DNA of 41,017 bases, taken from Candidatus Heimdallarchaeota archaeon. GTDB lineage: Archaea; Asgardarchaeota; Heimdallarchaeia; Heimdallarchaeales; Heimdallarchaeaceae. Below the pieces are notes generated by a model. The model was not told the origin of the DNA and did not search any database. It saw nothing but the letters and a program-made list of their open reading frames with translations. Location of the stretch: the NCBI GenBank assembly GCA_021399395.1, contig JAAFKJ010000162.1, forward strand, positions 1 through 41,017. Direction: 5' to 3'. Both the position numbers and the translations under genes were made by a program. Position 1 is the stretch's first letter, and each line of letters starts with the position of its first letter. Shown one piece after another: positions 4,789 through 26,020 of this stretch.

Positions 4789-5928
4789 TTAATCTATTTG
4801 TAGATGTGCTTGTCTGAGCTTCTCTTCAGATTCTAGAACCTTTTTTCGACTGTCTCTTCCTTTCTCAAGCACTTCCCAAAACCTTCCTACATAATCAGGA
4901 TGAATACCTGTTAGCACTCCTCTTATAGTTAGAATAGGTTCATCAATGGAATTGAGTGATGCTTTGATATCTCCTCGTTCAAATTTCTTTACAATTTTCC
5001 TTGTTTCGAAAGTGGATTGATATGTTGTTGGAGATGATATTGCTAAGAACCCTAATTTTGCTCTAGTAATATCAGCTGTTAGACTTGAACACTCATCTAT
5101 TTCATTGAAAAACAGATCAGAAAATCTTATGCTTTGAGCTTGTTCAAGGGTTTCATATTCTTTATCCAGAGAGACGATAACTCCCAATCCTCTTGCTTCT
5201 TCAGTGAAAGAATGAAAGAAATCTGTTAAACCTGCGTTGAACTCTTCATGAACACTCTCTTGTAATGCTGCAAGTATCGTTGTGGTGAGAGAATCAGCTA
5301 GGAATTCATTGCTTTTTTCCAATGCAACTTCAATCGATTCTTCTTTGAAAAGTCTCAAAAGTTTATCATTGTCAAACAAAATTATTGGACATTTTGGTCC
5401 TTGAAAATCAAACCCTAAATAATAGAGAGCTCTTGCAGAGTTATATTGAACTAGTGATGGCTCATTTTTTTCAGGTATAACAAAGACCACTGTAGGTGGG
5501 GTTCCAGTTAATTCTGCTATGATTTTACTTATCTTCATAGCTCCGGCACTGCCTGTTCCACCTCCACTACCAACAATTAAGTGAAGAGCTAAATCTTCTT
5601 CATCTCTTCTCTCATGTTTCTTGTAGAAAAGTACCTTTTCGATTTGGTCTCTTAGTTGGGATTCATTTTGCGACAATTCTTTGAATACTTTTTCTAAATC
5701 ATAATCAGAAGACTGAATATCTTTTGACCCGAACCAGTAATGGTCAGAGAAGTTGTTTACTTTAGGAGCGAAATTGTCTGTCAGATTTACAGCAAGTGAT
5801 TTTACTGTTATCCTGCTCTCTCTTAGAAGATGGATGAGTCTATCACCAATGCGACATCCTGCATTCCCTACTCCTATAACTGCGATGGATATTTTCTTGC
5901 GAAATAGTTTTTTCTTAAGCCAACTCAT
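4789..5928 (-). CDS. Tubulin/FtsZ/CetZ-superfamily GTPase
   Basis: IAVIGVGNAGCRI (T1 loop), signature GSGGGTGSAG, IILFDNDKL and T7-like FNAGLTDF. Confidence 0.88.
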   Translation of the reverse strand: MSWLKKKLFRKKISIAVIGVGNAGCRIGDRLIHLLRESRITVKSLAVNLTDNFAPKVNNFSDHYWFGSKDIQSSDYDLEKVFKELSQNESQLRDQIEKVLFYKKHERRDEEDLALHLIVGSGGGTGSAGAMKISKIIAELTGTPPTVVFVIPEKNEPSLVQYNSARALYYLGFDFQGPKCPIILFDNDKLLRLFKEESIEVALEKSNEFLADSLTTTILAALQESVHEEFNAGLTDFFHSFTEEARGLGVIVSLDKEYETLEQAQSIRFSDLFFNEIDECSSLTADITRAKLGFLAISSPTTYQSTFETRKIVKKFERGDIKASLNSIDEPILTIRGVLTGIHPDYVGRFWEVLEKGRDSRKKVLESEEKLRQAHLQID

Positions 5929-7289
5929 TATGTACCAACTCCTACAGATTTTATGATTTTGAAGATATTAGCTACCCATAGTGCTATGGCCATTATTGTT
6001 CTGAAGATTTTTTGTGTAGATATTGGAAACGTTCTCATAGATGCTACAAATTCTCGTAACTGTAACATCGTAACATTTTCTTGTTTAGCTTCCTCATTGT
6101 ATTTTTCACCAAATTCAACAACATTAGCAAAAATATAATTGTCTAATTCCATGAGGGCTTTAATCTTGAATTTTTTTGCCTTGGCGTTAAAACCAATAAG
6201 AGGGATGAAAATAAATAAAACCATCAACGCAGCAACCAGAGCAGAGATTGTTACAATAAAAATTGTCAAAGGTTGATCTTTGTTAAGGAACAAGAAGTCA
6301 ACAATGTTGTTTGGCATTCCCTCATTCAACCCATAAACTAATTCGTTAGCATTACCCATACCCATTGCTATTATGATGATTAAGGTAGATAAGATGCCTG
6401 CTGTAGGGATATTTTCTAACTGACTAATAGACCTCCCTTTTGACCATTTATCCCCTAAGGACCAGATCATATCATAATTGTCCCTTTTCAAGAGAGTTCC
6501 ATATTCATTCAAGTATGTATTCATTCTATCTTTGAAAGGTTTAAGCGCTTTAGCATATATTCTTGTGTTGAGTATCATGAAATAAACAGCTATAAAGAAT
6601 ATATAGAATAGAAGTGGGTTGAAGATGCAAGCCAAAACCCCAAAAACTGCTGCTACAGTGTATCCATATGTAAAGGCTAATTGCAGCATAGGAATTTGGA
6701 TACCTATTCCTGCAGCTAGTGACATTAATATTATCAATGGATTTCTTGGTAAGTGCCTATCATAGTATTTCGAATAATATTCTCTTACAGGCTTTTCTAC
6801 AAATTCAACTCGTTTTGCTTGAATTAAACCGAGAAAACCATCATGAGTATATTTCAGATAGAATAAAGATAGCAGTATTGCTATAAGAATAGGTGTACCT
6901 ACATTGAAAAGTATATCAGATATCCACCTAAGTACAGTCTTGCCACCATCAGTTACAAACGCTTTTTCCAAAGGAATGATTGTGAAAAATATTGTAGGGA
7001 TGAAGAGTATTGTAACATATATCCACAGTTTTAGATATTCCTTCCATCTTAAAGAAAGAATTGTGTTTAATTTTAATCCAAAAAGAGCAACTGGTAAGAG
7101 ATAAAACCTTCTGAAAGGTTGTTTTAATGCTCTAACAAACCTTGGTTTTTCAATCATTTCAGCTGTTCTTGGAAACCTCTTATAATGTTCATTTATCATT
7201 TCTTCAAAGTCAAAATTTGGTAATTCAACATCATCCGGAATAACATTTTTTGCTTTAACAGAAATTGATTTTGGAGAACTCGATTCCAT
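5928..7289 (-). CDS. Polytopic membrane protein (6-7 TM), translationally coupled to the tubulin-like gene
   Basis: Multiple hydrophobic helices. Its TAA overlaps the next ATG (TAATG at 5926-5930 on the minus strand). Confidence 0.75.
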   Translation of the reverse strand: MESSSPKSISVKAKNVIPDDVELPNFDFEEMINEHYKRFPRTAEMIEKPRFVRALKQPFRRFYLLPVALFGLKLNTILSLRWKEYLKLWIYVTILFIPTIFFTIIPLEKAFVTDGGKTVLRWISDILFNVGTPILIAILLSLFYLKYTHDGFLGLIQAKRVEFVEKPVREYYSKYYDRHLPRNPLIILMSLAAGIGIQIPMLQLAFTYGYTVAAVFGVLACIFNPLLFYIFFIAVYFMILNTRIYAKALKPFKDRMNTYLNEYGTLLKRDNYDMIWSLGDKWSKGRSISQLENIPTAGILSTLIIIIAMGMGNANELVYGLNEGMPNNIVDFLFLNKDQPLTIFIVTISALVAALMVLFIFIPLIGFNAKAKKFKIKALMELDNYIFANVVEFGEKYNEEAKQENVTMLQLREFVASMRTFPISTQKIFRTIMAIALWVANIFKIIKSVGVGT

Positions 7290-8824: not shown

Positions 8825-11800
8825 CTAAAGATCTTCTTTTGGTTTTGTTCTTTGTAGAACTACAGAAGCTATAACAAATCCAACAGTAATTAAGAACATT
8901 GCACCAAATGCTCCACCAGTTCTGGAAGCATCTGCAGCTTTGATCTGGTTAAGGAACTCTTCTTTGATATCTTCATAGAATATTTCTGTTGCTTTATGAA
9001 CATCTTCTTGCCAGAAGAGAGTACCCATTTTACCAGTCAAACCTGGGAATGTTGTATGCCAAGTTGGATAGAAGTGGAAAGGTTCTAAATCTGTTTTTGG
9101 ATTAAAAAACTCTTCATTTAATCCAAATTTGAAAGGATCAAGATAATCGTAGAATTCTAGATAATCTGTTGCAAACGTATTATATTGTACTCTATCTCGT
9201 CTCTCAACTACAGATCCAGTTACCGGTTCAACAAACATCTCGTGCATATGGAATTGATCTCTTGGTTGTCCTGGGAAGGAGAGAGTTATGAAAAAGTCAT
9301 CAACATTAAAATCAAAAGTGTATTCTTGATTCCACATTCCTGCATAGATGTAGCTGGAATTTATGAAGTTTGCATCATGCATCCAATATAGTTCATATTC
9401 TTCCATTTGACGATAAGGAATTTGATATTCTGCTTTGTAGTAATATACAATTTCATCAAAGAAAAGTGCAGTATCTGTTTCAGATGTGTAAGAGAAAGGT
9501 CTCAAAAATGTATCTGACCATTGTAATCTCAGCCCTTTTTCAATACCTGGATATGTGGAGTATGAGGAATATGTTTTATTGAAAGCTATTCTCTCAATCT
9601 GAGCTGTTGGCCCAAGATCCCAACCACCAAACTGAACTTTACTGTTTCTATTCCATTGTTCAGAGAATGTGTGAAGTTGGTCATTGGTCATGTAAATGAT
9701 ATTTGATCCTTGTTTTGTTAAATGCACTAATCCTTCTGTATAATCTGCTAAGTAGATATCATTGCCAATTGCATATACACCGAGTGCTGTACCTTTATGT
9801 TCAATACCTGAAAAAGTAGAATCTTCTACAGGACTGGATTTAGTGCTGATATCTACAACAACTAAACCATCCTCTCCAAGTGTAAGATACACCAAATTAT
9901 TATCAATATCTACATGCATATCGATGAAAGGTGTTCCTGGAGGAAAGGCATATTGTCCGACTAAAGAGTCTATTACTCCAGCTACAATTCCTAACTGGAA
10001 TATCAACAATCCTTCAACTTCATCCAAAACATACAGATTGTATTCTTCTACTTGGACATCTATAACATTAGTAAGTTCTGGGAAGTCCAATGAATTATAA
10101 TGATTTGCTAGAGTTATGATATCGGATCCTACAGCATCGATGGTAAAGGTGTTGATTCCATCAGGTCCTAAAGCTGCGTAAGCTGCATATGAGGTTTCAT
10201 TGGTTACATCAATTGCATAAACTGTCCCATCAGCTGATTCTGCCCAGATATTGTCTGATGGTAAACCTGTTGCAGAATCGATTTCTATAATATCTACTCC
10301 GTATATTCCATTGGCTAAAATTAGTGAAGCATTTGCACCATTTTCTGCAAAATAAACAGTATCTACATCATACATATCGTCGAACCCATAATAACTCCAT
10401 TGACTGCGTTCTTCTAAATACATTGGATTTCTAGCATCAATTATCTCCATTCCATTGGTACCTTCAACCACATAGATATAACCATTACAAACATCAAATG
10501 ATTCGATTATTCCATTGTGATCTCCATATTGACCAACTGCTAGGAAGAGAGGACTGTCGTTTTGAACTATTTTTATTTCGTTACCTTCTAGAACGTATGA
10601 GTAGTTACCTAAAACTACAACATCACTTGATTCTTCATATTCGTAGTATGGTAAATTAGCAATACCAATTATTTCGTGAGTGTCTTTGTAGTCATTTACA
10701 CCGAGTTTCTCTGCATAGTAAATATCTGTGTTCCAATTAATACTAGCACTTGTAAGAGTTTCATTCTTAACTAGTGGGAAGCTTTCTCCTAAGAGTGGGT
10801 CTTCAATTCCTATAACCCATTCCATAGCAGTTCTGGGACAAACATATGAAATTTTATTGTCGTAAAGCCAGTCTAAACATGGTTCGTCCAAGAAGTAGTT
10901 CAAATAAGCAGCGAGTGACATTGCGGCTAGTCTTTCTGAATCTGTGTCTATACCATAGATGTCAGCTAGAAGCTGAACAGGATCAATTATGATATCTGCT
11001 GGGTCATAATATAATCCTCTAACTAAATCAAGGAAGTATTTCTGTGAGCCACTTTCTCCTGTTATTAGCGAGTAGTCATGGCCATTGTAAGTTGAGTTAA
11101 ATAATATCTTGTAACTTGTTGCTGCATCAAAGTCTAAATCTTTGTAAGCAGGACGTACGCTTATCCAATTGTGAGGAAGATAAATTCCTAAATCTACAAT
11201 TCCTTCTGATTCTGCATATACTCTGTTAAGAGTTGCAAAAGCTACATCGGCATCAGTCCATCCTTTGAGATTCTTAATTATTTCAAGTTCTGAATTTATA
11301 AGATAGGACGCGATATAAGCTTGGAACCCATATTCGGATCCATTTCCAAAGTTCTCAATGTAATAAGGCCACATATAATTGAAATTCAAAACAGTTTCAT
11401 TTCCAAATAAAGTTGAAGCTGATGAGTTAAATCTGTATTGTGTTCGTTCTGCATAGACTACATAATCTCCTTCAGGACTATCATCGTAATCAATGATTGT
11501 TTTATTGATTATTATATCAAAAACAAGTTCTCCTTGAACGAAGTAGTATGATACCGGCGTGTTATAGTCAAGATACCCTCTACGATCGGATACATTGAAG
11601 AATTCAAAGAAAGCTTGATCATAGACTTTTGAACCTTCATCAGACATATCGGTAAACATCCAAGGTGAAGGGGTTTCTCCTGTTCCTTCTCTAACGAAAT
11701 CATCCTCGACTGTTAATTGACCAAAGTCACGTAATCTCGAGTTGATGTCATCCATTTGTACAATAGAATTTTGGGGAAGAATAATACCAATGGCTAAACC

Positions 11801-11860
11801 TGAACCAATCATAACCACTAAAATTAAAGTACCTATTAAAACTCGAAGTCTTTTATCCAT
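8825..11860 (-). CDS. CD36/LIMP-2 (scavenger receptor class B)-like two-TM protein with LVIVD-repeat insertion
   Basis: N- and C-terminal TM helices. CD36-like motifs FEFFNVSD, RTAMEWVIGIEDPLL, HEMFVEPVTGSVVERRDRVQYN and LFWQE. Internal LVIVD-type repeats such as YLTLGEDGLVVVDISTKSSP. Confidence 0.7.
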   Translation of the reverse strand: MDKRLRVLIGTLILVVMIGSGLAIGIILPQNSIVQMDDINSRLRDFGQLTVEDDFVREGTGETPSPWMFTDMSDEGSKVYDQAFFEFFNVSDRRGYLDYNTPVSYYFVQGELVFDIIINKTIIDYDDSPEGDYVVYAERTQYRFNSSASTLFGNETVLNFNYMWPYYIENFGNGSEYGFQAYIASYLINSELEIIKNLKGWTDADVAFATLNRVYAESEGIVDLGIYLPHNWISVRPAYKDLDFDAATSYKILFNSTYNGHDYSLITGESGSQKYFLDLVRGLYYDPADIIIDPVQLLADIYGIDTDSERLAAMSLAAYLNYFLDEPCLDWLYDNKISYVCPRTAMEWVIGIEDPLLGESFPLVKNETLTSASINWNTDIYYAEKLGVNDYKDTHEIIGIANLPYYEYEESSDVVVLGNYSYVLEGNEIKIVQNDSPLFLAVGQYGDHNGIIESFDVCNGYIYVVEGTNGMEIIDARNPMYLEERSQWSYYGFDDMYDVDTVYFAENGANASLILANGIYGVDIIEIDSATGLPSDNIWAESADGTVYAIDVTNETSYAAYAALGPDGINTFTIDAVGSDIITLANHYNSLDFPELTNVIDVQVEEYNLYVLDEVEGLLIFQLGIVAGVIDSLVGQYAFPPGTPFIDMHVDIDNNLVYLTLGEDGLVVVDISTKSSPVEDSTFSGIEHKGTALGVYAIGNDIYLADYTEGLVHLTKQGSNIIYMTNDQLHTFSEQWNRNSKVQFGGWDLGPTAQIERIAFNKTYSSYSTYPGIEKGLRLQWSDTFLRPFSYTSETDTALFFDEIVYYYKAEYQIPYRQMEEYELYWMHDANFINSSYIYAGMWNQEYTFDFNVDDFFITLSFPGQPRDQFHMHEMFVEPVTGSVVERRDRVQYNTFATDYLEFYDYLDPFKFGLNEEFFNPKTDLEPFHFYPTWHTTFPGLTGKMGTLFWQEDVHKATEIFYEDIKEEFLNQIKAADASRTGGAFGAMFLITVGFVIASVVLQRTKPKEDL

Positions 11861-12013: not shown

Positions 12014-13276
12014 TCATGCTTTGTTTTTTGTATCATCAATTATTTCCAATTCGAATTTTTCAGCACTCAAAACATGTTCAAACAGATTTTGTTTATTAAA
12101 AACTATTATTTTATGTTCCGAATCGTATAATACTGCTGCAATTTTATCTAATTTGGAATATCTATCTGTCAAAATTTTAGGTGTAGAAATATAACTAAAA
12201 ATACCTCTGACTATAGCACCATTGGTCCTTCTGTTCAAGATTGATAGGATGATATCTGAATTTCCATAATACTCTCTAATGTTTTGATAAGCGTCTGTTC
12301 TCAATCCCTCTGGTCCAGGTTGAATAACGACATATCCTCTGGTTGGGAGTTCCTTGCTTGCATAACTGGTTGATTTTCTACCGTGTTTGAAAAGGACTGA
12401 TAAATCTGGTTTGTTGTCATAAATATCTAAACTAAAAAGTTGGCATATACCCTTTGTATTCTCAAAGATTCTGGTGAAATTACTATGATCAGTTTGGTAG
12501 AATTCTGATTTCATTAAAGTTCCTATTAGAATATCAGCTACTACATTAGCTTCTCTTTGCAGAGTTAAATTTGGTAATTCTTCGTTAGAAACATTTGAGT
12601 TCAATTTGACAGAATATTTCTCATCTACCAATATAATAGGAACATCAAATTTAGTTTCCTTTTTCAGAAGATTATAAATAAATACAAGGGCTGAAAACTC
12701 CTCTAAAATTTTACTCTCATCTAATGGTAGATGTACGAACAATACTGGCTGAACCTTCATCTCCTTGATATATTCAATTACTTTTTCCATTAAACCAAGA
12801 ATAAATGGGTTATTATCGAGAAAGATAAATGCTGATGACCTGTTTTTGATCGTCTTATCGATATAAGATTTAATTCTATTCTCATTTTCTTGATACCATC
12901 TTTTTCCGAACAAGAAAGAATTAACTTCTCTATTCTCTTCTGGTAATTCGATGTTTGATATATCTGATATATTAGTCAAGTTGGAGCTGAATCCAAGGAT
13001 TACTGATGAAGGTAGTGAGTTCTTAAACCTATCTTGAAGACCGTTTAAAATTCTTTGACCATGATCACCTGTAAAAATTAAGCCTATAGGCGTATCGAGC
13101 TTATCAGCTTCTAAGTATAATGTATCTGAATATTCGCATCCAACTAATGGATTTTCTTCCGATTTACTGTTTGAAATTATACCTTTATGGTTAAATTCTA
13201 AGAAACCGTTGTATTTTTTTGGAGAGTCTTCTTCCTTATTTTTTCCTCGTTTAAGAATTGATTTCATCTTTGACAC
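12014..13276 (-). CDS. Degenerate tubulin/FtsZ-like protein lacking the GGGTG motif (paralog of 4789-5928)
   Basis: Colinear similarity to the 4789-5928 protein: IGLIFTGDHGQRI, PIILVDEK, TKGICQLFSLD, IVRGIFSYI. Confidence 0.6.
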   Translation of the reverse strand: MSKMKSILKRGKNKEEDSPKKYNGFLEFNHKGIISNSKSEENPLVGCEYSDTLYLEADKLDTPIGLIFTGDHGQRILNGLQDRFKNSLPSSVILGFSSNLTNISDISNIELPEENREVNSFLFGKRWYQENENRIKSYIDKTIKNRSSAFIFLDNNPFILGLMEKVIEYIKEMKVQPVLFVHLPLDESKILEEFSALVFIYNLLKKETKFDVPIILVDEKYSVKLNSNVSNEELPNLTLQREANVVADILIGTLMKSEFYQTDHSNFTRIFENTKGICQLFSLDIYDNKPDLSVLFKHGRKSTSYASKELPTRGYVVIQPGPEGLRTDAYQNIREYYGNSDIILSILNRRTNGAIVRGIFSYISTPKILTDRYSKLDKIAAVLYDSEHKIIVFNKQNLFEHVLSAEKFELEIIDDTKNKA

Positions 13277-13447: not shown

Positions 13448-16400
13448 GTGTCTGATAATTCTGTTACAAAAAAGATGTCTGCGGCAGCATTTTTCAATGA
13501 TAACCGAGCTATTGCTGGCTTTGGAAATTCCATGAGAGCTGTTTTTACTAGTATTAGAGAATTAGTTGAAAATGGTTTGGATGCTGCTGAAAGAAGAGGG
13601 ATAAACCCCGTTATAGAAGTCGATTTAAGAAAACTGTCCAGTAGAGAAATAAATGAGTTATTGGATGTTACACAGTACAAAAAATTAGAAAAGCATCTTG
13701 ATTTTCTTCAGCTTACTTGTAGAGATAATGGTACTGGTGTTCCTGGACATCAAATCGCAGACTTATTTGGACGAGTATTAACTGGTACAAAATATGGCGT
13801 TATTCAGACACGAGGACGTTTTGGTCTAGGTGCCAAAATGTGCTTATTATACTCTATGTCTTCTGTTGATTTACCCGCAAGAATCAAATCTCGTTATTTT
13901 ATGGATGATATAACAAATGAAATGCATTTAATGATAAATCTTGAAAAGAATGAACCAATTATCATGGAACAAAGAGAATATCTTCCTGGAGATCCCAATT
14001 ACCTAGACGAACCAGGTGTTGAAATCAGTATAACTTTTACTGGCGCTTGGAGTCTTGCTAAAAACAGTGTAAAAGAGTATTTCAGACAATTAGCAATAAT
14101 CACACCTTATTCTACTTTTAATCTCAAAATTCCCGCAGACAAAGAAGGTGAATATGATGAGCTGATTTATGAGAGTGTAGTAGATGACATGCCTGACCCT
14201 CCTGAATATGTTAAAATTCATCCTTGGGGATGTGATATCACACAGTTCAAAGCTGAATTAGGAGCTAATAAAAATAAGAAACTCAAAGGCTTTCTTGCTG
14301 ACCATTTTATGGGAGTAACTGAAGAAATCGCAGAAGATTTCTTCCAACTTCTAGAGATTGACCCTAATAAAAACCCTAAGGATCTTTCTTCAAAAGAAAT
14401 CAGAAGAATTGTACATGAAGGTTTTGTAAAGGCCTATCAAGAAGCTAAAGACATCAAAAGGAAACGGGATAGAGTCTTTCAATTTGATAGTCCGAAAGGT
14501 ACTTCTCTATCCCCATTAGGCGCTGGAAGATTGAGAAAAGGTTTAGAAAAAGAGCTCAATCCAAAATTCGTTGAAGCAATATCAAGACCTGCAAAAGCAT
14601 ATTCTGGTCACCCCTTTATCATTGAAGCAGCTTTAGGTTATGGAGGAGGAGTAAGCGAAGCTGCCCAAACTCGAGGCACTACCGTTCAAGATAACAAAAT
14701 TATTTATAGATACGCTAACCGTATCCCACTTGTTTTCGGTGCAGGAAATGACGTTATAACTCACGTTACTTCCTCTATTAGGTGGAATGAATACGGTCTT
14801 ACCCGCCAATCAGATCCCTTGGCAATTGCTGTTTCCTTGGTAAGCACAAAAATACCTTTTCCCGAAACTAGTAAAGAATATATCTCAATAGTTCCTGAGA
14901 TTGAAGAAGAGATAAGATTAGCACTGATGCAGCTAGGTAGAAGACTTAAAACCTTCCTTAGCAGAGCTAAAAGGAAACGAAGGGAACATGCACGTCTTTC
15001 TCGATTTGTTAAATCAGCTCCTGTCATCGTTGATAATTTAGCTCAAATTTTAGAGGATGAAAATCTTCCCTTAACTGATTTCAGATTTGAGAAAAACAGA
15101 ATAGCTTCTGCACTAGCTCATGGGACGTCGAAAAAGGCAAAACTATTCATGCCTCTGAGTAAAAGGTTATTTGGTTTAAATATCTGGTGTCCTACACCCA
15201 TCCAAAACACTTTGAAATCACGTGGAATTATCTCTATATCTGATTTTCTACTAACACCTACTGAGGACCTGGCTAAGATTCTTGAGATGTCACTTGTTCA
15301 GGTATATAACATCAAACTGAGAACTATCTATGAACTTGATAAAGAAGGATTAAGTCCTGGTTTAGATTCTAAGATTTTTGTTACTAGAGCAATTGAGAGA
15401 AGATTCGATACAAGTGAAAGCAAGCCTTTAATCTCTCTAAAAGATGCTTTAAACAGACGCTGGATTCAAAATAGTTATCACTTCCTAGCAACAGATTATA
15501 GAAAACTTCATTCTGTTTCCGGTTTTGTAGAGAAATTATTTGAGAGCAAGAAAGATGACCTAATAAATCAACTTTTACTAAAGAATAGAAAATCAGATGG
15601 GTCAATCAGAGCAAGTCCATCTTTGAGCGAAATCAACAAACTTACAGGTATCACTCAACTTAAGATAAAACATCTCTTCCCAACCTTCAAAGAATTAAAG
15701 CAGAAGTCTAGTGGCCATCTTTCAGCAGATATGTCAATTGAAGAATTCTTTTATCAGACTCTTCATCCTGGAGAAATAAACTACCAACAAGAAGTTACTG
15801 TTGTACTTGTTGAACATCTAAAATCTGTATTCACTGCACTTTCAAACAAGTTCCCTAACTTCAAGAACACAAGCTTAACCAAAATGAAACCAGATTGGAC
15901 TGATGGATATACAAAAAATGCTTTTCATAGAAGGAAAATAAAGATAGTTGACGATTTTATTACAGGAAATACTGATGACCTAATACTAATTAAAGAAATG
16001 GAGAGACTTCTCTATTCAACATATCTAAAAATGCTTGTTAAGGAATCACCCTCTTCCAAATTGTCAGATTTTGTAATATTTCCACTAAACGAAATGAAGC
16101 CAAAAGAAAGCGAGTTGATTAAGAATCTGATTGCAAAGGGTATCACCACTTTAGCTAAGTTAGTCTATTATACTGCAGACCAGGTAAATCAAACTAAAAT
16201 AAAACAATTAATACCTCTACTATTAGAAGAATCGAAAAGAAAATTAAAACAATCATTAATTGAAAAAGAACATGAACACAGTAGTTCTCATATCAAGATT
16301 ATTCCTGTAAATTTGGAAAAAGAGCTTCTCAAAAATCAAATTTTTAATGCATCAGCATTTCTTGCTTACTCATCTCCTGCTCTAAGAAAAATGGGTTTGA

Positions 16401-19400
16401 AGAAACGTGATGTTGAACGTATGAAGAAAGCACTTGGAACACCTATACCAAATTGGTTAGAACATCAAGAATTAATCAAGAAACTGGGTATAAATACACT
16501 TGAAGAGTTTTTCTTCAACTCTCCTGATGCATATTCTATGACTGCAGATGAGACAAAGAAATATCTAGATATGAGTGTTTTCTTACGTTCCCCAATTACC
16601 TTTAATTTCCCACATCTACGAAATATATCTCACTTAGTAAGAGAAGTTGGACTAAATTGTATTGGGAGATTTGCAATCTGGCCAAATAAAGAATTAGTAG
16701 AAATACTGGAAGTTTCAGAAAACAAGATAAAATCAATGAAAGAAAGTATTTCTATTGCAGATTATCAGACGAATAAAGAGAAGTATGGAATAGATTTCAA
16801 ACAGCTTAAAGGTATTTATCCAAAACTTGTAGAATATTTCGGAAATACAGAACCTACAATTCAAGATCTGTTTTATCTTTATCCCTCTGAAAAACTTCAT
16901 TTCACAAAAGGCTATTGGATTAAAATCGAAAATATAAGCGATCTTTCGCAAATGGAGATCATTGAGTTATCACATTTGTTTGACAAGAATCCCAAGCAAC
17001 TTCCAGCACTAAAAGAAGCACTACTAAGATTAAAAGCACGGAACACAGTCACAATTAAACAATTTTTAGATTTGATTCCTGAGATTATTGAATCAGAACT
17101 AACCAATATTCCTCAAAGAAATGCAGCTCTTGAACTGCATAGAATGTTAAAGACCAGAAAAATAGAAGAAGAAGACGAATTTAGCAAACAAATTCTACTA
17201 ATATGTGAGTTTGATGATTTTCAAAGCGCTCTTGCACTACCCATATCAAGAGTTTCAAAGTTATCCCTTTCAGATTATGAAACCCTAAGGAGTAAGGGCA
17301 TAATTGCAGTTCATCAGCTGTTTGAATACCTTCCAAAGGAGATAGCTACAATTCTAGAAAAAGAAGAACAAGAAATGATTAATCTCTTGAATGATTTCCA
17401 ACTTGAACAACAAGGAACAAACTTCTTTGAGAAAATAGACAGAAATAGGTTTAAATCATTAGTATCTTTTGACTTTGAAGAGTCTGAAAGATTCTCCTCT
17501 CATGAAATTCTATCTTTAGTCCTTGCTGGTTATAATACTGTTGACAAAATCTTCTATCTCGCACAACCAATGATTTTCTCAGCCCCTCTAGTAAATTGGA
17601 ATGTTGTTGATAAATTCAGAAAGTTACTGAGATCACCTTTAACGTTAGTTACTTGGGAGAAAAAGGTAAAGAAGACCATACAAATTGAAGGAGAAGAAGG
17701 AACAAAAACAGTTGAAGAAGATCAAATAACAACTCTCTCAACTGAACAGTTAAGCACACTGCAAAATAACGGTATAACTAGAATAATTGATCTGCTTGTA
17801 AGTCAAGCTGAGAATATTTCTTCCTATCTCGGAATTGGTTTGGATGAAGCAAGGAGCTTCCAGAAGAACATTAGAATTAGTGATACAGGAACTGATATTT
17901 CTGAACTTGACTTATTCAAGACTGAGGTTGTTAAGGCGCTTGAACTATCCAATATTTACACTTTAGAAGATCTTTATTTCTCATCCACTGAAAATAAATG
18001 GGACCATACAATATTACCATGGAGAACAGTGGAGGCATTCAAACAAGTTCTGAATTTACCTCTAAATCACATATCTGATATGCTTGATGCTGAGTTAATT
18101 ACAGCTTTACAAGAAGTAAATGTTCTGACACTTCTTGGATTTATGCTCAGTTCCCCAGAAAGTCTGATGGAAAGGACTGGTATTCCTGATGAACGAATAG
18201 AAAACATAAAACGAGGTCTAGATTTATCAGATATTCTAAGTTATTTCTCTCTACCAAGTTACTTCCTACCCAATCTTACGTTCGAACAAACAGAAATACT
18301 AAGAGATAACAAAATCCAAACAATTGCGGATTTCATATTGAGTTCAAATCAAAAACTTACCAAATTACTCTCGATTCCATCAAAACAATTAGATGAAATA
18401 AAGGCATCCTTAACAGCTCAGAAAATAGTTGAAGTATATGAAGATAAAGGCATATTTGCATTTGAAACAAAGTTATTTGATAAAATGGAACAAAAACAAC
18501 TGAGTAGAGATTCTATCTTCCAATTTGAGAGATTTCAAACAATTCAAGAGTTGTTCTATGAAAGTGATCCTGCATTTTATCAACTAAACCCTGAATTATG
18601 GCCAAAAATATCTGCAGTTCAAAAAATACTAGCTCTTCCACTAAGAATCTTTACAGAGATTTCAGAATATTCTCTGGATGTTTGGGAGCAAAATAATATC
18701 AAGAATGTCTTTCAGTTACTATTCATTCCTGATGAAGATATCACAGATCCTTTACTATATAGATCGGTTTCTTCTAATTCTTCAAAAATGTTAGAAATGA
18801 GATCTTTCCATTTCTTCTCAAAATTACCTTCATCTGTCTATAATAGTTCTTTCTTTGAAAATATTGTTCAAGATTTCGAAAATAAGACATTATCAGATGT
18901 CATAACTGATCCTAAAGTTATATCTCATCTCCTTTCCAAGGATAAACGCTATCAAGCAGAGAATTATAATCTCACGCTAATAAGATCTCTTTTGGAATTA
19001 CCTCTCAGAATCACTCCATTCTTCACACGAATCAAGAAAATTCAGCGCGAAGAGTATACCAATACTAAGATAGGTGACGTGTTTGACATTGATTTAACAG
19101 AACATTCTGGTTTATCTCCCTTCTATAAGAAACTCATGGAAGTTGATTCTTTCAATAGTTTAGTAAAAGACGTTGCAGTACCAATTTCATCTATCGGTCT
19201 TCCTCGAGAAATGGCTCTCAAATTGAGCAAATCATCTGTTAACACATTGATCGATTTCTTCTCTGTACCTGCTCAAGTTCTTTCAGAAATTACTGGATTA
19301 TCCATGAGATATATCAGAGAGATACGAAATAGTCTAAACTACCAGCTGATAGTATCCTTTAGAGCAGAGAAATCACACAAGGTTCTTGAATCTTCAATTA

Positions 19401-22400
19401 TTACACAAAAACAGATTGATCAACTAGCAACATTAGGTTTGACAGATATAGAATCTATTTACTATTCAGCTGACACTCAGCGTATTTCCGACATACTACC
19501 TGTTCAGAACTATCAAAAGATAATGGAAATTCTCTCTGGATCAATTAGGTTTATTGGTTTTCTATCATTTGACGAAATTAAGCGTCTAGAGTTTTATGAA
19601 ATTAACTCTATCATTGATCTGGCTTTGTTAGATAAAAAAGAACTCTTCCATATCACACAAAATCCTATTTACAAAGAATTTCATGCCTTAGATATTCTAT
19701 CTTTGGATGAATTAGTAGATAAGAGAATTGAAGCAGCAATCCCAATCACACTATTGCCCTCTATTGAAGAAGATTATTTAGAGAAAATCAACAAACTTGG
19801 AATCTATTCCATCCAAGATTTTAATTCAAGAATGGCTGAAATAAGAGAATCACACCCCCATCTTGTTAAATTAGATGTTTTCCGCGAAGTACAAATGTAT
19901 CTCGCATCAGTTGCTTTCATAGGATTAACCAATCAACAAGTACAGAAGTTAATCTACTCTGGAGTTGGTGATATTCTCTCCTTTATAACCGAAGATGTTT
20001 CTACAATTGCTCTTATACTAGATATAAGCGAGAAGGATGTAAGAAAGCATATTGATAGGATAGAACCTCTTGCACTTGCACAAGAAGTTAGAAGAAAAGG
20101 AGTAAAAATTGAAGAATTTCCAGTTCTGAAGAAGTCAACTATTAATTATCTCTTAAAATCGGATAAAGAATATGTTCAAGATGTTTATAGTCATTATTAC
20201 CAAGCATTTACAATCACCAATGTCTCTGATGAAGTAATCAAAGATTTCCTTGGAAATTGTAACATTTCGATTTATAGAATAAAAGAAATATCGACTGAAA
20301 CAAAATTACAATTGTCACAAATGGGTGTTCTAAGAATAATAGATTTCCTTTGTGTAAATGATAGTGAATTGAAGAAGGCTTTTGATGGATCTATCCCCAA
20401 AGAAATATCTGAAATAAGAAAAGGGCAGTTTAGTTTAGATAGAGGTACACCTCTGTTACTAAATGAACCAATCAAAGATCTTCTAAGAGACCTCTATTTT
20501 GATCCAGATAAAAAGACTGTAGAGGACCTATTTGGATTTGTTCCTGAACACCTGCTACAGTTTTCAGAATTCGAAAGAATTGAGAAAATCTCAAATATCT
20601 CCTTCGTTGAGCAACTTGTAAGTTTTCTAAGTTTGAGTGTCTTTTCTCTCCCCTATTTTGACATGGATACTAAAGTTGCTCTAAGAAGAAATGGTGTCCA
20701 TCATGTAATTGAGCTGATTTCTACCAAAGTTCAAATGCTGGAAAATTCGAATTCTGAGATAAATAAAAATATTCGTGAATTTCAGAGCAACTTCAATTTG
20801 ACCAAAAGAATGTCTGAAACCTTCAGTCCTCATCTCAACCAAACACTCAATTTATCTAAGAAAATGAGTGAACAGTTCCGAAGTTATGGTTTAACAACAG
20901 GTCTTTTCCTCTTTGATTTTGTTCAGCATCCCCTATTCAATTTTTCAGATAAAGAACAGAAGGTTATCTCGGATATTACCTTTAATTTCTTCCGACCTGT
21001 TTCTTGGTTGTATGATGTTATCGGTTTAGATGTTAAAAATTTCAATCGGTTGATAAGTAGGCAAACAACTAACATTCTATCAGCTCATTTGCTTCTAACA
21101 GAATCAAAATCCAAACCCGAAATTGTAGCATTCCCTTCAAATATCATCTCCAAGTTCAATAAAACTCTCAATGAAGAATTGATTAGTCTCAAACCCCCAG
21201 CTTGGGCTATCAGACTTGACGAGATGAAATTGATTACTGATAGTAAATTCTTGAAGAGACTCAAATCAAGGAAAATAGTATATATTGATGAGTTGATCGC
21301 ATCAGATAGTTTAGTGAATTCAGATACTAAAATTGCACAAGAAATCAGACCTATACTTTACTCTCTCAAGAATTTCAATATCTCTACACTAGACGGATTA
21401 ACTTCTACACAAACCCAAAAACTAATTCAGAATGGTGTTCGTAATGTTCTCCATTATCTCTCACTTCCCGCACCTATGCTAGCCAAAATTACAGGGCAAT
21501 CAGTTGAATCAATTAGAGCAATTATTACTAAAATAGATTTAAACGTTTTAGAAGGAAGTGTCCGATTAGTAGGACTAGATATAGATTTATTCACAGAAAT
21601 TTCTGATAATGTTAAGAATCTTCTGAAGGAATATGGTTGTGTTTCACTCACTCAAGCAGCGAATCTGAATCTTGATCAACTACCAATTTCACATGAAGAT
21701 AGGAAAAGTTTAACACAATTGGTATCTATGCTCTTGACTCCAATTACAATTATTGGGAAAGTATTAAAATTAAGTAAGAAAGAAATTGATGAGCTTCTTT
21801 CTAATAATGTCTTAACTTATACTGACCTTTTAGAAGTTCCTCAACAGAAGTGGTCAGCTAGCATAAAACGGTTGATTTCAAGACAGAAAACAGACCCCAA
21901 TTACTTGATTAAAAGACTACATGATATTGAAAAGTTTGGTGTGTCTATTCAGAAAATAGGTTTAACAAAAGCAGTTACAGAATCATTAATCTCTGCTGGA
22001 ATAACAACAGTAGATCATCTACTTTACCTACCTTCAACACATGTTTCTTCGATAACTAAACTGAAGGAAGATGAACTTGAAGATTTATTAATAAAACTGA
22101 ACTCAAGTCCAAGTCTAATTCCAGGATTTTCAAAAAATATTTTGGTCTATATCTACAGTAAACCTCATTATTCAATAGCAGACTTATTGGTCAATTTCCA
22201 TAACATCTCAAAAGAGAATTTGAAGATAATTCTAGATGGTGTTGACAAAGTAAAGAATGTCGAGGAATTGAAGTTCAAAGATCCTCTTACCACAACTGAA
22301 AAATATATTATTGGAAAAGAGTTCCACTCATATACATCACTTATAACTTCAAAGAAATTTATTGAAGATAAAAAGATATTTTCAAGAGTTGCTCCTTACT

Positions 22401-25400
22401 TACTTGCTAATATTAGGTATCTTGGGTTAGATAATAAAATCGAAGCCGCACTTAAGAGAGCAGGGATTACAACAGTTGCAGATTTACTTATCCTTTCTCC
22501 GAAAACTATAGCGACTCAAGCAAGAACAAGTATTCAGAAAATACAGGAAATTATTATGGCAATCAATGTAGATGATATAAATTCAAAAGTTATTATGAAT
22601 CAGGATTTACATCTCAGAGATGCATTCTTTTTAACTGACAGAGACAAAGAGTTCCTAAAATCAATTGGTGTTTTCAACTTAAACGATTTGAAAGAATACT
22701 CTGTATACTCCTGGATTGTATCTGAAAGCAGGATTGAAACAATAAGGGGAAGAATAGGCTCTATACTTCAAACTCCAATCCTATACTACAAGGAAACTTT
22801 GAAACGACCATTCTATGAAATAGAGAACAACTATCTGTTAAAGGAAATTCATTCTGTTCAAGAGCTAATAACAATTTCAAACCAAAAAGAAGTGGATAAC
22901 ATTACCGAATTTCTTAGAACCTTTTCTGCTTCTACTGAAAAGATAAAAGAGGATTTTGTAACAATTGAGCAAGTATTCAGCGAAGTTGAACTTACTGCTC
23001 TGAACAAAGATCTCAAGATTAAGAAATTAACCTTGTTTAACGAGCTTCTACTTGAAATGTATATTAATTACAAGAAGCTTAGTCCAGAAATTCTCAAGAT
23101 GCTTCAAGTTCTGAAACATCCTCTTTCAGCTTCATCCAAATTTAGTACAAGTGATATTCAAAGCTTGAATTCCAAGAATATTTACACATATATTGATCTT
23201 TTAATTAAACCGATAAGTTACTGGCCTACATTTGCGCCAATCAAACTTAAAACAAAGATAAAAGAGTTAATACCAACTCTTACACTCAAGAAAATTAAAA
23301 GTGATATGACAAAGAGAACTAAGATTTCTTCAACTAAAATCTTTAATCCGAATGTAAAGAAAGTGTTGGGTTCAGCTTACCAAACAGTAGATGAATTAAT
23401 TTTTGAAATAATGGTTGAGAATTATCGCGTTTCTAAATCTGTAATTAACTCGGTTCAAAAAACTTTGACAACTTCTGTTTTATTGGTAAAAATTCCAAAA
23501 ATACCATTAAAAGCATGGAAGAAAACAACCAGCAGTCTAAAGGAAATTGGGGACTTGTATAAGTTATCAAACAAAGATCTTGGATCTATGCTTTCACTAC
23601 CACCTAATGATGCTACAAAGACTATTGATAATTTGACACCAGAAAATATCCTTAACCCACCTATGGTAAAAGCTAACAAAATCTTGTCTTTGAAGGATGT
23701 TGAATTTTTCCATAGTCTTGGAATAAGAAACTTCATTCAGCTGTTGGATGCTATGAAAGTGTCAAATACAATTCCTAAGAACTTGAAGGAGAAAATCAAT
23801 ACTTTAGTTAAACTTGATGTTAAGAAATTAGAACCCAAAATAAATGAATCACTAACATTGATGGAACTACTGTTCTTAAATCCTAATTTATCAACCCTAG
23901 CTATTACTAAATCGCAGAAAGATATTCTTCAAAGAACAGCTGATTTCATGTTCTCTAGAGGAACAGAACTTTGTACTGTTCTAAATGTAGATATGTCCAA
24001 TCGTAAAATCAAATGTCCAGATTTATCTTTAGAGTATCTCTTATTGTTACATAAGTTTGATACCAAATTATATACCTCGATTCTAGGTAATCTTCCTGAA
24101 GAATATTATTCCCAAATAAAAGAGCTCTTTGGATATCTTGAAAGATCACCTGTTATTCTCTCTAAACCAACGTTGGAAAATATCGATCAAATTGCCTCTC
24201 AAGAATTTGAAACAATTTCAGAGATGTTGCTTGAACCCAAAAAATCCCTCTTTAGTGTAGTAACAGATAATACTTTGCAGAGAAATATAAGAAATATCTC
24301 TCTTACCCTTCTCAAGGAACTCAAGAACAACTTCTTAGAATTTCCAGCAAAATTATTTGCTGCAAGTGAATTGAACACTTTGAAACGATCTTCAATCTAC
24401 ACAGTAGAAGAAGCTCTTCTGTTTAATAAGAAATCTAAATCAAAAATTTCAAAAGAATGGGAACTTTGTTCCAAACTAAAAAACATAATGTCGATGGAAC
24501 TGAATGATTTGCCAGCAATGATTGAAAATAAAGAAGCTTTCAATTATGCTGCTAAAAATAAACTAAAGACAATCTATGATTTGTTAGCACACTGTAAGCA
24601 TGGTGCTAGTTCTGAAGTAATATGTCAGGAAATATTACCTACAATAAGATTCGATTTACTCGCTGATTTGATAACTAAAGAGCAACGAAGACTCTCAAAT
24701 TTTGTAAAGGGAACAGAGCTGAATACTATCTTAAAGAAGCATAAGTTGAGCACATTTGGTTCCTTATTTAATTTCATTGAGAAAACAGAATTACAGAATA
24801 TGGAATCAGATTTTGAAAAGCTTCTATCAATCCTCAGAGCTCCTGTATCAATTTTAACAAGTGATAAATCTTTATCAGTAAAACTAAATAAACTTGGATA
24901 CAATCAGGTACTTGATCTCTTACTACCTGCAAATATTAGTAGCATACTCTCTAGAAGCAAATTAACTGATAGGCAGTTAGCTTCAGCAAAGGAAATAGTA
25001 AAGAAACTTAATTTTGTTACCATAAACAGCATTATTACAGCTGACTGTTATCCAATAACTAGTGTTAGTTTTATTGATGACAATATTAAGAAATTATTAC
25101 TAAGAGCAGGATATTCAACAATAACTCATCTAAATATTTCTGATGAAATTCTGATGAAAACATCTGGACTAACAGCGTTGCCACTATCTAGAATTAAGAA
25201 GATATTAATGACACCTTTCTATTATCTTTCAGACTTAACAAGAGAAAATCCTTCAAGCTTGTTTATCTTGTATAACAAGGGGATAAGCATAGTCAGAGAT
25301 ATATTCGTCTCTAACTGTAAGCAACTCTCAAGTCAGTTAGGAATACCTGAAAGACAAATGAAATCCCTTCTTTCCACACTTACAGATCAGTCCATAAAGC

Positions 25401-26020
25401 TAGCTCAAAAGGATGAAACAGATCTGAAACCATCTATGCCGTTTATTGGGAATCAAGAAATTCAAAAACTTGAAGAAGCAAGTATTACCTCGGTTCAAGA
25501 GATAATTTTCCCGACTAATAAAGCCAAGAAATCTTCAGCTCTTACATTGGTTAAAGTTGCTAAATTTGTGCAACATCTAGATAAGAAAATTGAAGAGCTG
25601 GATGTTAAAGCAGGTGTTTTAGTTCAAATAAAACAACTTGGTATAAACAATTTCAAAGAATTTATACTCTATCCGTCAGCTGTTTTGGACAGCAAAGTTG
25701 ACTTAAGTTATATGGCTATTAAAGGTCTAAAAAACAGACTTCCTTTAACTAGCACAAAGTCTTCAGCTGCAAAGAAACCACCATCTAAAGCTAAACCAAC
25801 ACCGAAAGCATCAACTACTAAGAAGACCACTTCTTCAGCATCCAAACCCAAGACTAGCTCTGCAAAAAAACCACCAACAAAGAAACCAGAGCCTAAGACA
25901 GCAAGTTCGAAGGGTACCAAACAAACAACCTTACTAGATATGGGTTCTGATAAAAAGAAGAAAACGTCATCTTCGTCTAAAAGCTCTTCAAAGAGCAAAA
26001 AAAGGAGTAGTGGAAAATGA
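13448..26020 (+). CDS. top6B: DNA topoisomerase VI subunit B with giant (~3600 aa) C-terminal HhH-like repeat extension
   Basis: GHKL motifs RELVENGLDA, DNGTG, TKYG..QTRGRFGLG; transducer motifs YSGHPFIIE, RYANRIPL, KIPFPETSKEYI. Directly upstream of top6A. Confidence 0.95.
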   Translation: MSDNSVTKKMSAAAFFNDNRAIAGFGNSMRAVFTSIRELVENGLDAAERRGINPVIEVDLRKLSSREINELLDVTQYKKLEKHLDFLQLTCRDNGTGVPGHQIADLFGRVLTGTKYGVIQTRGRFGLGAKMCLLYSMSSVDLPARIKSRYFMDDITNEMHLMINLEKNEPIIMEQREYLPGDPNYLDEPGVEISITFTGAWSLAKNSVKEYFRQLAIITPYSTFNLKIPADKEGEYDELIYESVVDDMPDPPEYVKIHPWGCDITQFKAELGANKNKKLKGFLADHFMGVTEEIAEDFFQLLEIDPNKNPKDLSSKEIRRIVHEGFVKAYQEAKDIKRKRDRVFQFDSPKGTSLSPLGAGRLRKGLEKELNPKFVEAISRPAKAYSGHPFIIEAALGYGGGVSEAAQTRGTTVQDNKIIYRYANRIPLVFGAGNDVITHVTSSIRWNEYGLTRQSDPLAIAVSLVSTKIPFPETSKEYISIVPEIEEEIRLALMQLGRRLKTFLSRAKRKRREHARLSRFVKSAPVIVDNLAQILEDENLPLTDFRFEKNRIASALAHGTSKKAKLFMPLSKRLFGLNIWCPTPIQNTLKSRGIISISDFLLTPTEDLAKILEMSLVQVYNIKLRTIYELDKEGLSPGLDSKIFVTRAIERRFDTSESKPLISLKDALNRRWIQNSYHFLATDYRKLHSVSGFVEKLFESKKDDLINQLLLKNRKSDGSIRASPSLSEINKLTGITQLKIKHLFPTFKELKQKSSGHLSADMSIEEFFYQTLHPGEINYQQEVTVVLVEHLKSVFTALSNKFPNFKNTSLTKMKPDWTDGYTKNAFHRRKIKIVDDFITGNTDDLILIKEMERLLYSTYLKMLVKESPSSKLSDFVIFPLNEMKPKESELIKNLIAKGITTLAKLVYYTADQVNQTKIKQLIPLLLEESKRKLKQSLIEKEHEHSSSHIKIIPVNLEKELLKNQIFNASAFLAYSSPALRKMGLKKRDVERMKKALGTPIPNWLEHQELIKKLGINTLEEFFFNSPDAYSMTADETKKYLDMSVFLRSPITFNFPHLRNISHLVREVGLNCIGRFAIWPNKELVEILEVSENKIKSMKESISIADYQTNKEKYGIDFKQLKGIYPKLVEYFGNTEPTIQDLFYLYPSEKLHFTKGYWIKIENISDLSQMEIIELSHLFDKNPKQLPALKEALLRLKARNTVTIKQFLDLIPEIIESELTNIPQRNAALELHRMLKTRKIEEEDEFSKQILLICEFDDFQSALALPISRVSKLSLSDYETLRSKGIIAVHQLFEYLPKEIATILEKEEQEMINLLNDFQLEQQGTNFFEKIDRNRFKSLVSFDFEESERFSSHEILSLVLAGYNTVDKIFYLAQPMIFSAPLVNWNVVDKFRKLLRSPLTLVTWEKKVKKTIQIEGEEGTKTVEEDQITTLSTEQLSTLQNNGITRIIDLLVSQAENISSYLGIGLDEARSFQKNIRISDTGTDISELDLFKTEVVKALELSNIYTLEDLYFSSTENKWDHTILPWRTVEAFKQVLNLPLNHISDMLDAELITALQEVNVLTLLGFMLSSPESLMERTGIPDERIENIKRGLDLSDILSYFSLPSYFLPNLTFEQTEILRDNKIQTIADFILSSNQKLTKLLSIPSKQLDEIKASLTAQKIVEVYEDKGIFAFETKLFDKMEQKQLSRDSIFQFERFQTIQELFYESDPAFYQLNPELWPKISAVQKILALPLRIFTEISEYSLDVWEQNNIKNVFQLLFIPDEDITDPLLYRSVSSNSSKMLEMRSFHFFSKLPSSVYNSSFFENIVQDFENKTLSDVITDPKVISHLLSKDKRYQAENYNLTLIRSLLELPLRITPFFTRIKKIQREEYTNTKIGDVFDIDLTEHSGLSPFYKKLMEVDSFNSLVKDVAVPISSIGLPREMALKLSKSSVNTLIDFFSVPAQVLSEITGLSMRYIREIRNSLNYQLIVSFRAEKSHKVLESSIITQKQIDQLATLGLTDIESIYYSADTQRISDILPVQNYQKIMEILSGSIRFIGFLSFDEIKRLEFYEINSIIDLALLDKKELFHITQNPIYKEFHALDILSLDELVDKRIEAAIPITLLPSIEEDYLEKINKLGIYSIQDFNSRMAEIRESHPHLVKLDVFREVQMYLASVAFIGLTNQQVQKLIYSGVGDILSFITEDVSTIALILDISEKDVRKHIDRIEPLALAQEVRRKGVKIEEFPVLKKSTINYLLKSDKEYVQDVYSHYYQAFTITNVSDEVIKDFLGNCNISIYRIKEISTETKLQLSQMGVLRIIDFLCVNDSELKKAFDGSIPKEISEIRKGQFSLDRGTPLLLNEPIKDLLRDLYFDPDKKTVEDLFGFVPEHLLQFSEFERIEKISNISFVEQLVSFLSLSVFSLPYFDMDTKVALRRNGVHHVIELISTKVQMLENSNSEINKNIREFQSNFNLTKRMSETFSPHLNQTLNLSKKMSEQFRSYGLTTGLFLFDFVQHPLFNFSDKEQKVISDITFNFFRPVSWLYDVIGLDVKNFNRLISRQTTNILSAHLLLTESKSKPEIVAFPSNIISKFNKTLNEELISLKPPAWAIRLDEMKLITDSKFLKRLKSRKIVYIDELIASDSLVNSDTKIAQEIRPILYSLKNFNISTLDGLTSTQTQKLIQNGVRNVLHYLSLPAPMLAKITGQSVESIRAIITKIDLNVLEGSVRLVGLDIDLFTEISDNVKNLLKEYGCVSLTQAANLNLDQLPISHEDRKSLTQLVSMLLTPITIIGKVLKLSKKEIDELLSNNVLTYTDLLEVPQQKWSASIKRLISRQKTDPNYLIKRLHDIEKFGVSIQKIGLTKAVTESLISAGITTVDHLLYLPSTHVSSITKLKEDELEDLLIKLNSSPSLIPGFSKNILVYIYSKPHYSIADLLVNFHNISKENLKIILDGVDKVKNVEELKFKDPLTTTEKYIIGKEFHSYTSLITSKKFIEDKKIFSRVAPYLLANIRYLGLDNKIEAALKRAGITTVADLLILSPKTIATQARTSIQKIQEIIMAINVDDINSKVIMNQDLHLRDAFFLTDRDKEFLKSIGVFNLNDLKEYSVYSWIVSESRIETIRGRIGSILQTPILYYKETLKRPFYEIENNYLLKEIHSVQELITISNQKEVDNITEFLRTFSASTEKIKEDFVTIEQVFSEVELTALNKDLKIKKLTLFNELLLEMYINYKKLSPEILKMLQVLKHPLSASSKFSTSDIQSLNSKNIYTYIDLLIKPISYWPTFAPIKLKTKIKELIPTLTLKKIKSDMTKRTKISSTKIFNPNVKKVLGSAYQTVDELIFEIMVENYRVSKSVINSVQKTLTTSVLLVKIPKIPLKAWKKTTSSLKEIGDLYKLSNKDLGSMLSLPPNDATKTIDNLTPENILNPPMVKANKILSLKDVEFFHSLGIRNFIQLLDAMKVSNTIPKNLKEKINTLVKLDVKKLEPKINESLTLMELLFLNPNLSTLAITKSQKDILQRTADFMFSRGTELCTVLNVDMSNRKIKCPDLSLEYLLLLHKFDTKLYTSILGNLPEEYYSQIKELFGYLERSPVILSKPTLENIDQIASQEFETISEMLLEPKKSLFSVVTDNTLQRNIRNISLTLLKELKNNFLEFPAKLFAASELNTLKRSSIYTVEEALLFNKKSKSKISKEWELCSKLKNIMSMELNDLPAMIENKEAFNYAAKNKLKTIYDLLAHCKHGASSEVICQEILPTIRFDLLADLITKEQRRLSNFVKGTELNTILKKHKLSTFGSLFNFIEKTELQNMESDFEKLLSILRAPVSILTSDKSLSVKLNKLGYNQVLDLLLPANISSILSRSKLTDRQLASAKEIVKKLNFVTINSIITADCYPITSVSFIDDNIKKLLLRAGYSTITHLNISDEILMKTSGLTALPLSRIKKILMTPFYYLSDLTRENPSSLFILYNKGISIVRDIFVSNCKQLSSQLGIPERQMKSLLSTLTDQSIKLAQKDETDLKPSMPFIGNQEIQKLEEASITSVQEIIFPTNKAKKSSALTLVKVAKFVQHLDKKIEELDVKAGVLVQIKQLGINNFKEFILYPSAVLDSKVDLSYMAIKGLKNRLPLTSTKSSAAKKPPSKAKPTPKASTTKKTTSSASKPKTSSAKKPPTKKPEPKTASSKGTKQTTLLDMGSDKKKKTSSSSKSSSKSKKRSSGK
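15200..25740 (+). repeat. Protein-level tandem array of ~40-55 diverged HhH_5/RadA-NTD/alphaCTD-like repeats
   Basis: Recurrent consensus P[IL]xxLxLxxxxxxxLxxxG[IY]xT[IV]xD[LF], e.g. LKSRGIISISDFL, LQNNGITRIIDLL, LISAGITTVDHLL, LKRAGITTVADLL. Count is by eye; no DNA-level identity is visible. Confidence 0.8.

Follow-up and report, generated by a model that had tools for sequence, protein, structure and literature searches.

Can an archaeon encode a scavenger receptor of the CD36 type, and, if so, in what form? CD36, SR-BI, and LIMP-2 are treated as a eukaryotic family in the literature searched, where the only prokaryotic link found is a set of actinobacterial structural relatives; no report of CD36 in archaea was found in that literature, from whose scope subscription journals and supplements were excluded. 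The question is raised by a gene of Candidatus Heimdallarchaeota archaeon that lies within positions 1 to 41,017 of contig JAAFKJ010000162.1 (assembly GCA_021399395.1); this whole stretch of 41,017 nucleotides is referred to here as the window. A sequence-only reading had proposed that the gene encodes a CD36/LIMP-2-like ectodomain split by an LVIVD beta-propeller, a proposal supported by Pfam matches in orthologues, by hhalign, by local hidden Markov models (HMMs), and by fold matches of the C-terminal half. The inserted-propeller architecture is as good as certain, and the regions on either side of the propeller (residues 45-404 and 729-975) very likely belong to the CD36 superfamily as highly diverged members.

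Topology and composition of the protein

The gene and its two membrane-spanning segments are as follows.

8825..11860, minus strand: CD36-like gene with inserted propeller; one intact open reading frame (ORF) with an ATG start, 1011 amino acids (aa) plus stop
11777..11842, minus strand: N-terminal transmembrane (TM) helix, residues ~7-28, from hydropathy; helix 3-47 in the structural model
8855..8917, minus strand: C-terminal TM helix, residues ~982-1002, from hydropathy; helix 959-1004 in the model

The gene is present as a single copy in its own genome, and 37 relatives were found at expect values (E) of 2.7e-216 or below. Hydropathy (Kyte-Doolittle, 19-aa windows, cut-off >=1.8) peaks above the cut-off at only three sites: the two termini and a stretch of the propeller (~600-650) that forms beta-strands in the model. 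Hydropathy and model helices together give the hairpin topology of the eukaryotic CD36 family (PF01130: CD36, SR-BI, LIMP-2/SCARB2, croquemort, and SNMP; PDB 4F7B, 4Q4B, 5LGD), in which terminal TM helices and short cytoplasmic tails bracket a large ectodomain, glycosylated in that family and rich in sequons here. The ectodomain (31-975) has an isoelectric point of 4.08, with 151 aspartate and glutamate residues against 48 lysines and arginines. Its NxS/T sequons number 13, as opposed to 6.8 +/- 2.3 in shuffled sequences (13 or more in 19 of 2000 shuffles); all 32 orthologues retain those at 89, 173, and 366, and 31 of them retain that at 834, all four lying outside the propeller. The two terminal TM helices and the acidic, sequon-rich ectodomain described by the sequence-only reading are thus both present.

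Every motif quoted in that reading was also located, and in the expected order: FEFFNVSD (85-92), YVVY (133-136), YRF (142-144), RTAMEWVIGIEDPLL (343-357), HEMFVEPVTG (873-882), RVQYN (890-894), and LFWQE (948-952). The series is collinear with the FxFFNVS, RT..E....DPLL, H...VEPxTG...R.Q.N, and LFW.E motifs of eukaryotic CD36 proteins. Columns invariant across the 32 orthologues include H871, G882, R890, W950, and R343/E347/W348. Unlike eukaryotic members, the window protein is about twice the usual length, carries a 323-aa LVIVD propeller after the RT..DPLL region and a helical head of ~170 aa, has three ectodomain cysteines and a sequence below Pfam threshold, and belongs to an archaeal host.

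The LVIVD propeller

9677..10645, minus strand: seven-bladed LVIVD beta-propeller insert, residues 406-728

The roughly 300 aa of LVIVD repeats said to split the domain correspond to these residues. Pfam LVIVD (PF08309) matches the window protein above its cut-off (E 8.2e-7, 28.7 bits versus 20.2), and the AlphaFold2 model of the full protein, built from 32 input sequences (predicted local distance difference test score, pLDDT, 79.4; predicted template modelling score, pTM, 0.72), places 28 strands in seven four-stranded blades between residues 411 and 726. The protein shares this seven-bladed module with other LVIVD surface proteins, in which the propeller is a tandem module of a long protein rather than, as here, an insertion inside another domain. 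A propeller inside a putative CD36-type barrel is a domain architecture seen in no other protein family searched.

The propeller dominates database searches with the intact protein. A phmmer search of 1.84 billion representatives returned 796 proteins at E<=0.001, of which the seven at E<=1e-30 all belong to the family itself; among the 150 matches listed, those outside the family cover the propeller only and are confined to query residues 337-745. Fold searches with the full 1011-aa model (Foldseek and VIA-align over 48,161 chains, 50 rows each) gave only propellers among the matches listed, every VIA-align row spanning ~398-762. Because the propeller swamps these searches, they are uninformative on the flanks, and residues 729-975 were therefore folded alone.

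The flanks as remote CD36 homologues

10649..11728, minus strand: N half of the CD36-like ectodomain, residues 45-404; hhalign, Pfam CD36 in orthologues, local HMM
8936..9676, minus strand: C half of the CD36-like ectodomain, residues 729-975
9179..9244, minus strand: HEMFVEPVTG...RVQYN signature, residues 873-894; Pfam CD36 365-402 in orthologues, core of the local HMM matches

The first line of evidence comes from orthologues scanned singly with Pfam CD36, whose curated cut-off is 26.5 bits. Nineteen of 32 match at E<=1 (best 1.6e-6), and of eight inspected in detail two exceed the cut-off (P0014, 27.3 bits; P0015, 27.1 bits). The matches are collinear, residues ~105-268 corresponding to HMM positions 74-223 and residues ~874-911 to positions 365-402.

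The second line runs through other Asgard archaea. When a profile of the C half (A3) was run over 400 Asgard genomes, it found an 820-aa ORF of another family (E 2.2e-6 per genome). This ORF and four similar ones are bona fide CD36 proteins, with Pfam E values of 1.7e-82 to 4.9e-78 and 2.4e-90, and a search with one of them retrieved 48 more archaeal-type clusters together with three arthropod croquemort/SNMP proteins (E 8.7e-34 to 1.7e-23). In hhalign comparisons with A4, which aligns 28 CD36 proteins from Asgard archaea and, in three cases, arthropods, the N half scores 79.5% (E 1.5e-5, 125 columns) and the C half 87.7% (E 3.4e-6, 166 columns), the latter mapping to residues 259-436 of barnacle croquemort. 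A set of ten longer CD36 forms (A6), of which five come from nearby families in the same order or class as the window's, gives 84.2% for the N half (E 7.4e-6, 123 columns) and 60.5% for the C half; as a control, the N half against the C half gives 0.19%. Within these alignments HEMFVEPVTG...RVQYN pairs with the H..VEPxTG..R.Q.N of bona fide members. In local hmmsearch runs at E<=10, each half recovered 59 of the 61 CD36 proteins, the best values being 7.7e-7 and 2e-8, as against 0.26 and 0.5 with the sequences reversed. Among protein-language-model neighbors, taken as leads only, the nearest to the N half is a CD36 cluster (0.75); the C half lies closest to three clusters, one archaeal and unnamed (0.91), one of CD36 (0.90), and one of PorA (0.83).

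Fold comparison provides the third line. The model of the C half alone is poor (pLDDT 56, pTM 0.43) and is used here solely on account of the coherence of its top matches, which fall in a single superfamily. Foldseek rows 1-16 (E 3.1e-3 to 0.12) are all LIMP-2 (4q4b, 9fjf, 4f7b, 4tw0, 4q4f, 5uph), CD36 (5lgd), or Mycobacterium smegmatis LmcA (7n3v, 7shw), and row 17 falls to E 0.56 and a probability of 0.04. In a second fold search LIMP-2, CD36, and LmcA were likewise the sole top matches. On LIMP-2 the match covers the C-terminal half (chain 229-429), as homology predicts, so that the structural comparison with LIMP-2 suggested earlier comes out in favor of kinship for the C half, from a poor model. 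A complex prediction for the N and C halves scored 0.10 against a mark of 0.32, without controls, and is used neither way.

Several observations weigh against this assignment. The window protein has no Pfam CD36 match at E<=10 and thus falls short of the PF01130 cut-off, and its whole genome (81.8% complete) yields none. PDB sequence searches with the protein, the full-length profile, and each half-profile found no CD36-family chain. The hhalign probabilities are moderate (60-88%) and not decisive. Animal CD36 members have conserved ectodomain disulfides; the ectodomain here contains three cysteines only (328, 341, and 458) and no cysteine column is invariant in A4, so the animal disulfide pattern is not kept. 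Three further results concern the reach of sequence searches. With the N-half profile as query (E<=10), a word-indexed search over 5.8 billion proteins returned three same-family fragments only, among 4153 candidates; Pfam PorA/DUF3068 (PF11271) has no match in the window protein at E<=10; and PorA matches are sub-threshold and confined to four of the five full-length Loki-type CD36 ORFs scanned. Of the three Pfam families named for checking by the sequence-only reading, then, LVIVD is found in the window protein and CD36 and DUF3068 are not.

The helical head and the site of insertion

10859..11371, minus strand: enlarged helical head, residues ~164-334, N-terminal to the RT..EW..DPLL motif; helices in the model
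10790..10834, minus strand: RTAMEWVIGIEDPLL motif, residues 343-357; HMMER alignment

Ordinary Asgard CD36 proteins have the same topology and motifs as the window protein, as well as a helical insertion before the RTVxxWLW motif; unlike it, they lack a propeller and score 263-304 bits on Pfam CD36 (five full-length ORFs), the window protein being far more diverged. In HMMER alignments RTAMEWVIGIEDPLL, together with its preceding helix, falls on the RTVxxWLW...DPLL motif of four of them (L062, L063, L065, and P0205), and the last helix of the head plus the motif (residues ~308-357) aligns with the end of the helical-repeat insertion in CD36 proteins of the same order.

The N half is collinear with true CD36 proteins up to residue ~397 (A2 positions 290-353), and the C half resumes at ~745-763; the propeller therefore interrupts a hairpin ~50-60 residues past the RT..DPLL motif. 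The propeller insertion, which lies between residues ~398 and 745 in the hairpin after RT..EW..DPLL, differs in site from the helical insertion, which precedes the RT..DPLL motif in all Asgard CD36 proteins.

Distribution among Asgard archaea

The 400 Asgard genomes scanned were divided into families by the tool's own grouping, in which the window's family is f1. The propeller form occurs in 26 species-representative genomes, nearly all labelled Heimdallarchaeota, both complete Ca. Heimdallarchaeum chromosomes being among them. It is present in 29 of the 30 other f1 genomes, as one complete copy unless cut by a contig end (in one genome the gene is in two pieces on two contigs); the sole f1 genome that lacks it has a completeness of 84%. 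It is absent from the 369 remaining Asgard genomes, where the profile gives weak matches to ordinary CD36 genes. The distribution of the fusion, raised as a point to check, is accordingly, among the Asgard genomes scanned, that of a single family.

Ordinary CD36 shows a different pattern. PF01130 exceeds its cut-off in 28 of the 400 genomes: 20 of 135 in f20 and, near the window's family, one of one in f2, two of three in f3, four of 12 in f4, and one of two in f6, with none of 30 in f1. The two distributions are complementary, the propeller form being found in f1 and ordinary PF01130 proteins elsewhere. The ordinary proteins (L057-L066; P0188-P0235) are 607-1367 aa long, are deposited as "hypothetical protein", and carry helical-repeat insertions of ~275 to >800 aa before RTVxxWLW. 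Some occur as tandem paralogues (two at L060). The propeller protein is the form taken by the Asgard CD36 lineage in f1, its sister families having ordinary, Pfam-level CD36 proteins with helical-repeat insertions.

The description of the protein as "eukaryotic-signature" calls for qualification, given the ordinary CD36 proteins of 28 Asgard genomes and the actinobacterial LmcA/PorA proteins, which share the CD36 fold (PMC8972800). Actinobacterial LmcA/PgfA (MSMEG_0317, Rv0227c; PF11271; 7N3V) differs from the window protein in being bacterial and without a propeller; its crystallised part is ~270-300 aa and without a helical bundle (PMC8972800).

Two side observations concern sampling. The locus L024, labelled Candidatus Thorarchaeota, has the same contig coordinates as G038:C231, a genome assigned to the genus of the window itself; the phylum label of L024 is probably wrong. 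Another study's cold-seep metagenome (X3) contains eight contigs that are >=99% identical to window DNA.

Genomic neighborhood and expression

4789-5928, minus strand: tubulin/FtsZ-family gene; Pfam Tubulin E 1.1e-11
5928-7289, minus strand: 453-aa multi-pass membrane protein of no known family, abutting the tubulin/FtsZ-family gene
12014..13276, minus strand: upstream 420-aa gene of no known family, co-oriented with the CD36-like gene
13448-26020, plus strand: giant Top6B ORF, 4190 aa; topoisomerase VI subunit B over the first ~520 aa (Topo-VIb_trans E 3.9e-53)
26017-27426, plus strand: Top6A, with a 4-nt overlap with the giant Top6B

Around the CD36-like gene, the conserved order is tubulin-like gene, 453-aa membrane protein, pyruvate kinase, 420-aa gene, CD36-like gene, and giant Top6B. 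In 21 of 26 loci the 420-aa gene lies immediately upstream in the same orientation (flank missing in two, not adjacent in three), and the pair stays adjacent where its orientation relative to the neighbors is inverted. The tubulin/FtsZ-family gene and the membrane protein gene are kept together in 20 of the 26 related loci, and the N part of Top6B lies beside the CD36-like gene at 69-91% identity in 24. The 420-aa protein has no Pfam match at E<=1. Kinship with tubulin was considered: BLASTP against the 4789-5928 ORF is collinear over 259 aa at E 0.66, which is no evidence. The protein could be an operon partner, or else a tubulin-like protein that has degenerated. The remaining ~3600 aa of the giant Top6B contain many helix-hairpin-helix-like units (RAD51D_N E 9.3e-20, weak HHH_5) and end in a Lys/Ser/Thr-rich tail.

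Four contigs of 151-219 nt from RNA library X9 fall within the CD36-like gene (9320-10589) with 0 to 10 mismatches. They are a weak hint that the gene, or the copy of a close strain, is transcribed, DNA carry-over being possible; stretches of the gene that no contig covers carry no information.

A possible function at the cell surface

On balance the protein is probably best explained as a surface glycoprotein of the CD36 superfamily, with a helical head and a propeller, that binds or transfers hydrophobic ligands; for the binding of a lipid or other hydrophobic ligand taken by itself, which is argued by analogy, the prospects are about even. Under this explanation both ends of the protein would sit in the membrane, and the ectodomain would be a fast-evolved version of the asymmetric beta-barrel of the superfamily. 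By extension from other members, the barrel would house a hydrophobic ligand, such as a lipid, in an internal cavity and pass it to or from the outer membrane leaflet, while the distal head and propeller might select the source of the ligand (a partner cell, a particle, or a component of the envelope or its glycans). Ligand binding and transfer are favored because members of the fold hold lipids in an internal cavity (PMC8972800; bioRxiv 10.1101/633768) and because the signature residues of the barrel are invariant in the orthologues. In CD36, palmitate occupies the central cavity, and LmcA has two enclosed cavities (PMC8972800).

The main rival, rather unlikely in itself, is that the protein is a surface adhesin or envelope scaffold, whose barrel has lost lipid handling and persists only as a membrane-anchored stalk displaying the propeller and head; these two would attach to a glycan, to an S-layer component, or to a partner cell. 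A barrel sequence diverged beyond Pfam detection is what this would lead one to expect, and LVIVD propellers are common in large surface proteins: 789 of the 796 phmmer matches are weaker than E 1e-30, and of the 150 matches listed all but the family's own seven are propeller-only. The many sequons and the acidity are as in archaeal surface proteins, and a single, near-universal copy within the family would suit a structural role in the envelope. The invariance of CD36 signature residues in 32 orthologues, however, argues for constraint on the barrel itself, and all characterised members of the fold bind lipids or have cavities, as far as the accessible part of PMC8972800 describes them.

Origin and significance

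A further alternative, distinctly improbable, concerns ancestry rather than function: the Asgard CD36 genes, the window's included, would derive from an ancient eukaryote-to-archaea transfer or from assembly contamination, and there would be no pre-eukaryotic archaeal family. The patchy occurrence of Pfam-level CD36 in Asgard genomes is consistent with such an origin, as is the identity of the closest named non-archaeal matches, the arthropod croquemort and SNMP proteins noted above. Contamination is unlikely, however, since the ORFs are uninterrupted on archaeal contigs, the longest recorded being 504 kb, and since the propeller form is found in two complete chromosomes. Both versions, moreover, have to contend with the occurrence of Asgard CD36 in at least six Asgard families, with the shared, Asgard-specific helical insertion, and with the synteny of the propeller form, which is conserved across genera. 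An ancient transfer, in either direction, may have taken place.

Finally, chance or convergence, whereby an unrelated beta-rich surface protein would share a few short motifs with CD36, would fit the want of a significant PDB CD36-family sequence match, a window protein under every Pfam threshold for CD36, and a low-confidence C-half model, yet it is very improbable and already disfavored in the face of four independent and collinear kinds of evidence covering both halves (orthologue Pfam matches, controlled hhalign, HMMs with reversed controls, and two fold searches), the same two-TM topology, and the alignment of the RT..EW..DPLL motif and its preceding helix with CD36 proteins of the same order.

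The CD36-superfamily assignment bears on a bolder scenario, a long shot at present, in which lipid-transfer receptors of the CD36 type arose in Asgard archaea before eukaryotes. In the Heimdall group the propeller and head would dock partner cells or particles, and the barrel would move their lipids into the archaeal membrane. If all this were true, the Heimdall-group form would be an archaeal forerunner of eukaryotic scavenger-receptor uptake. The conserved, strongly remodelled single copy in the window's family, together with the unannotated Pfam-level copies elsewhere, would bring a lipid-handling surface receptor into the set of proteins that Asgard archaea and eukaryotes have in common, and it offers a concrete target for understanding how Heimdall-group and other Asgard archaea exchange hydrophobic molecules with their partners.

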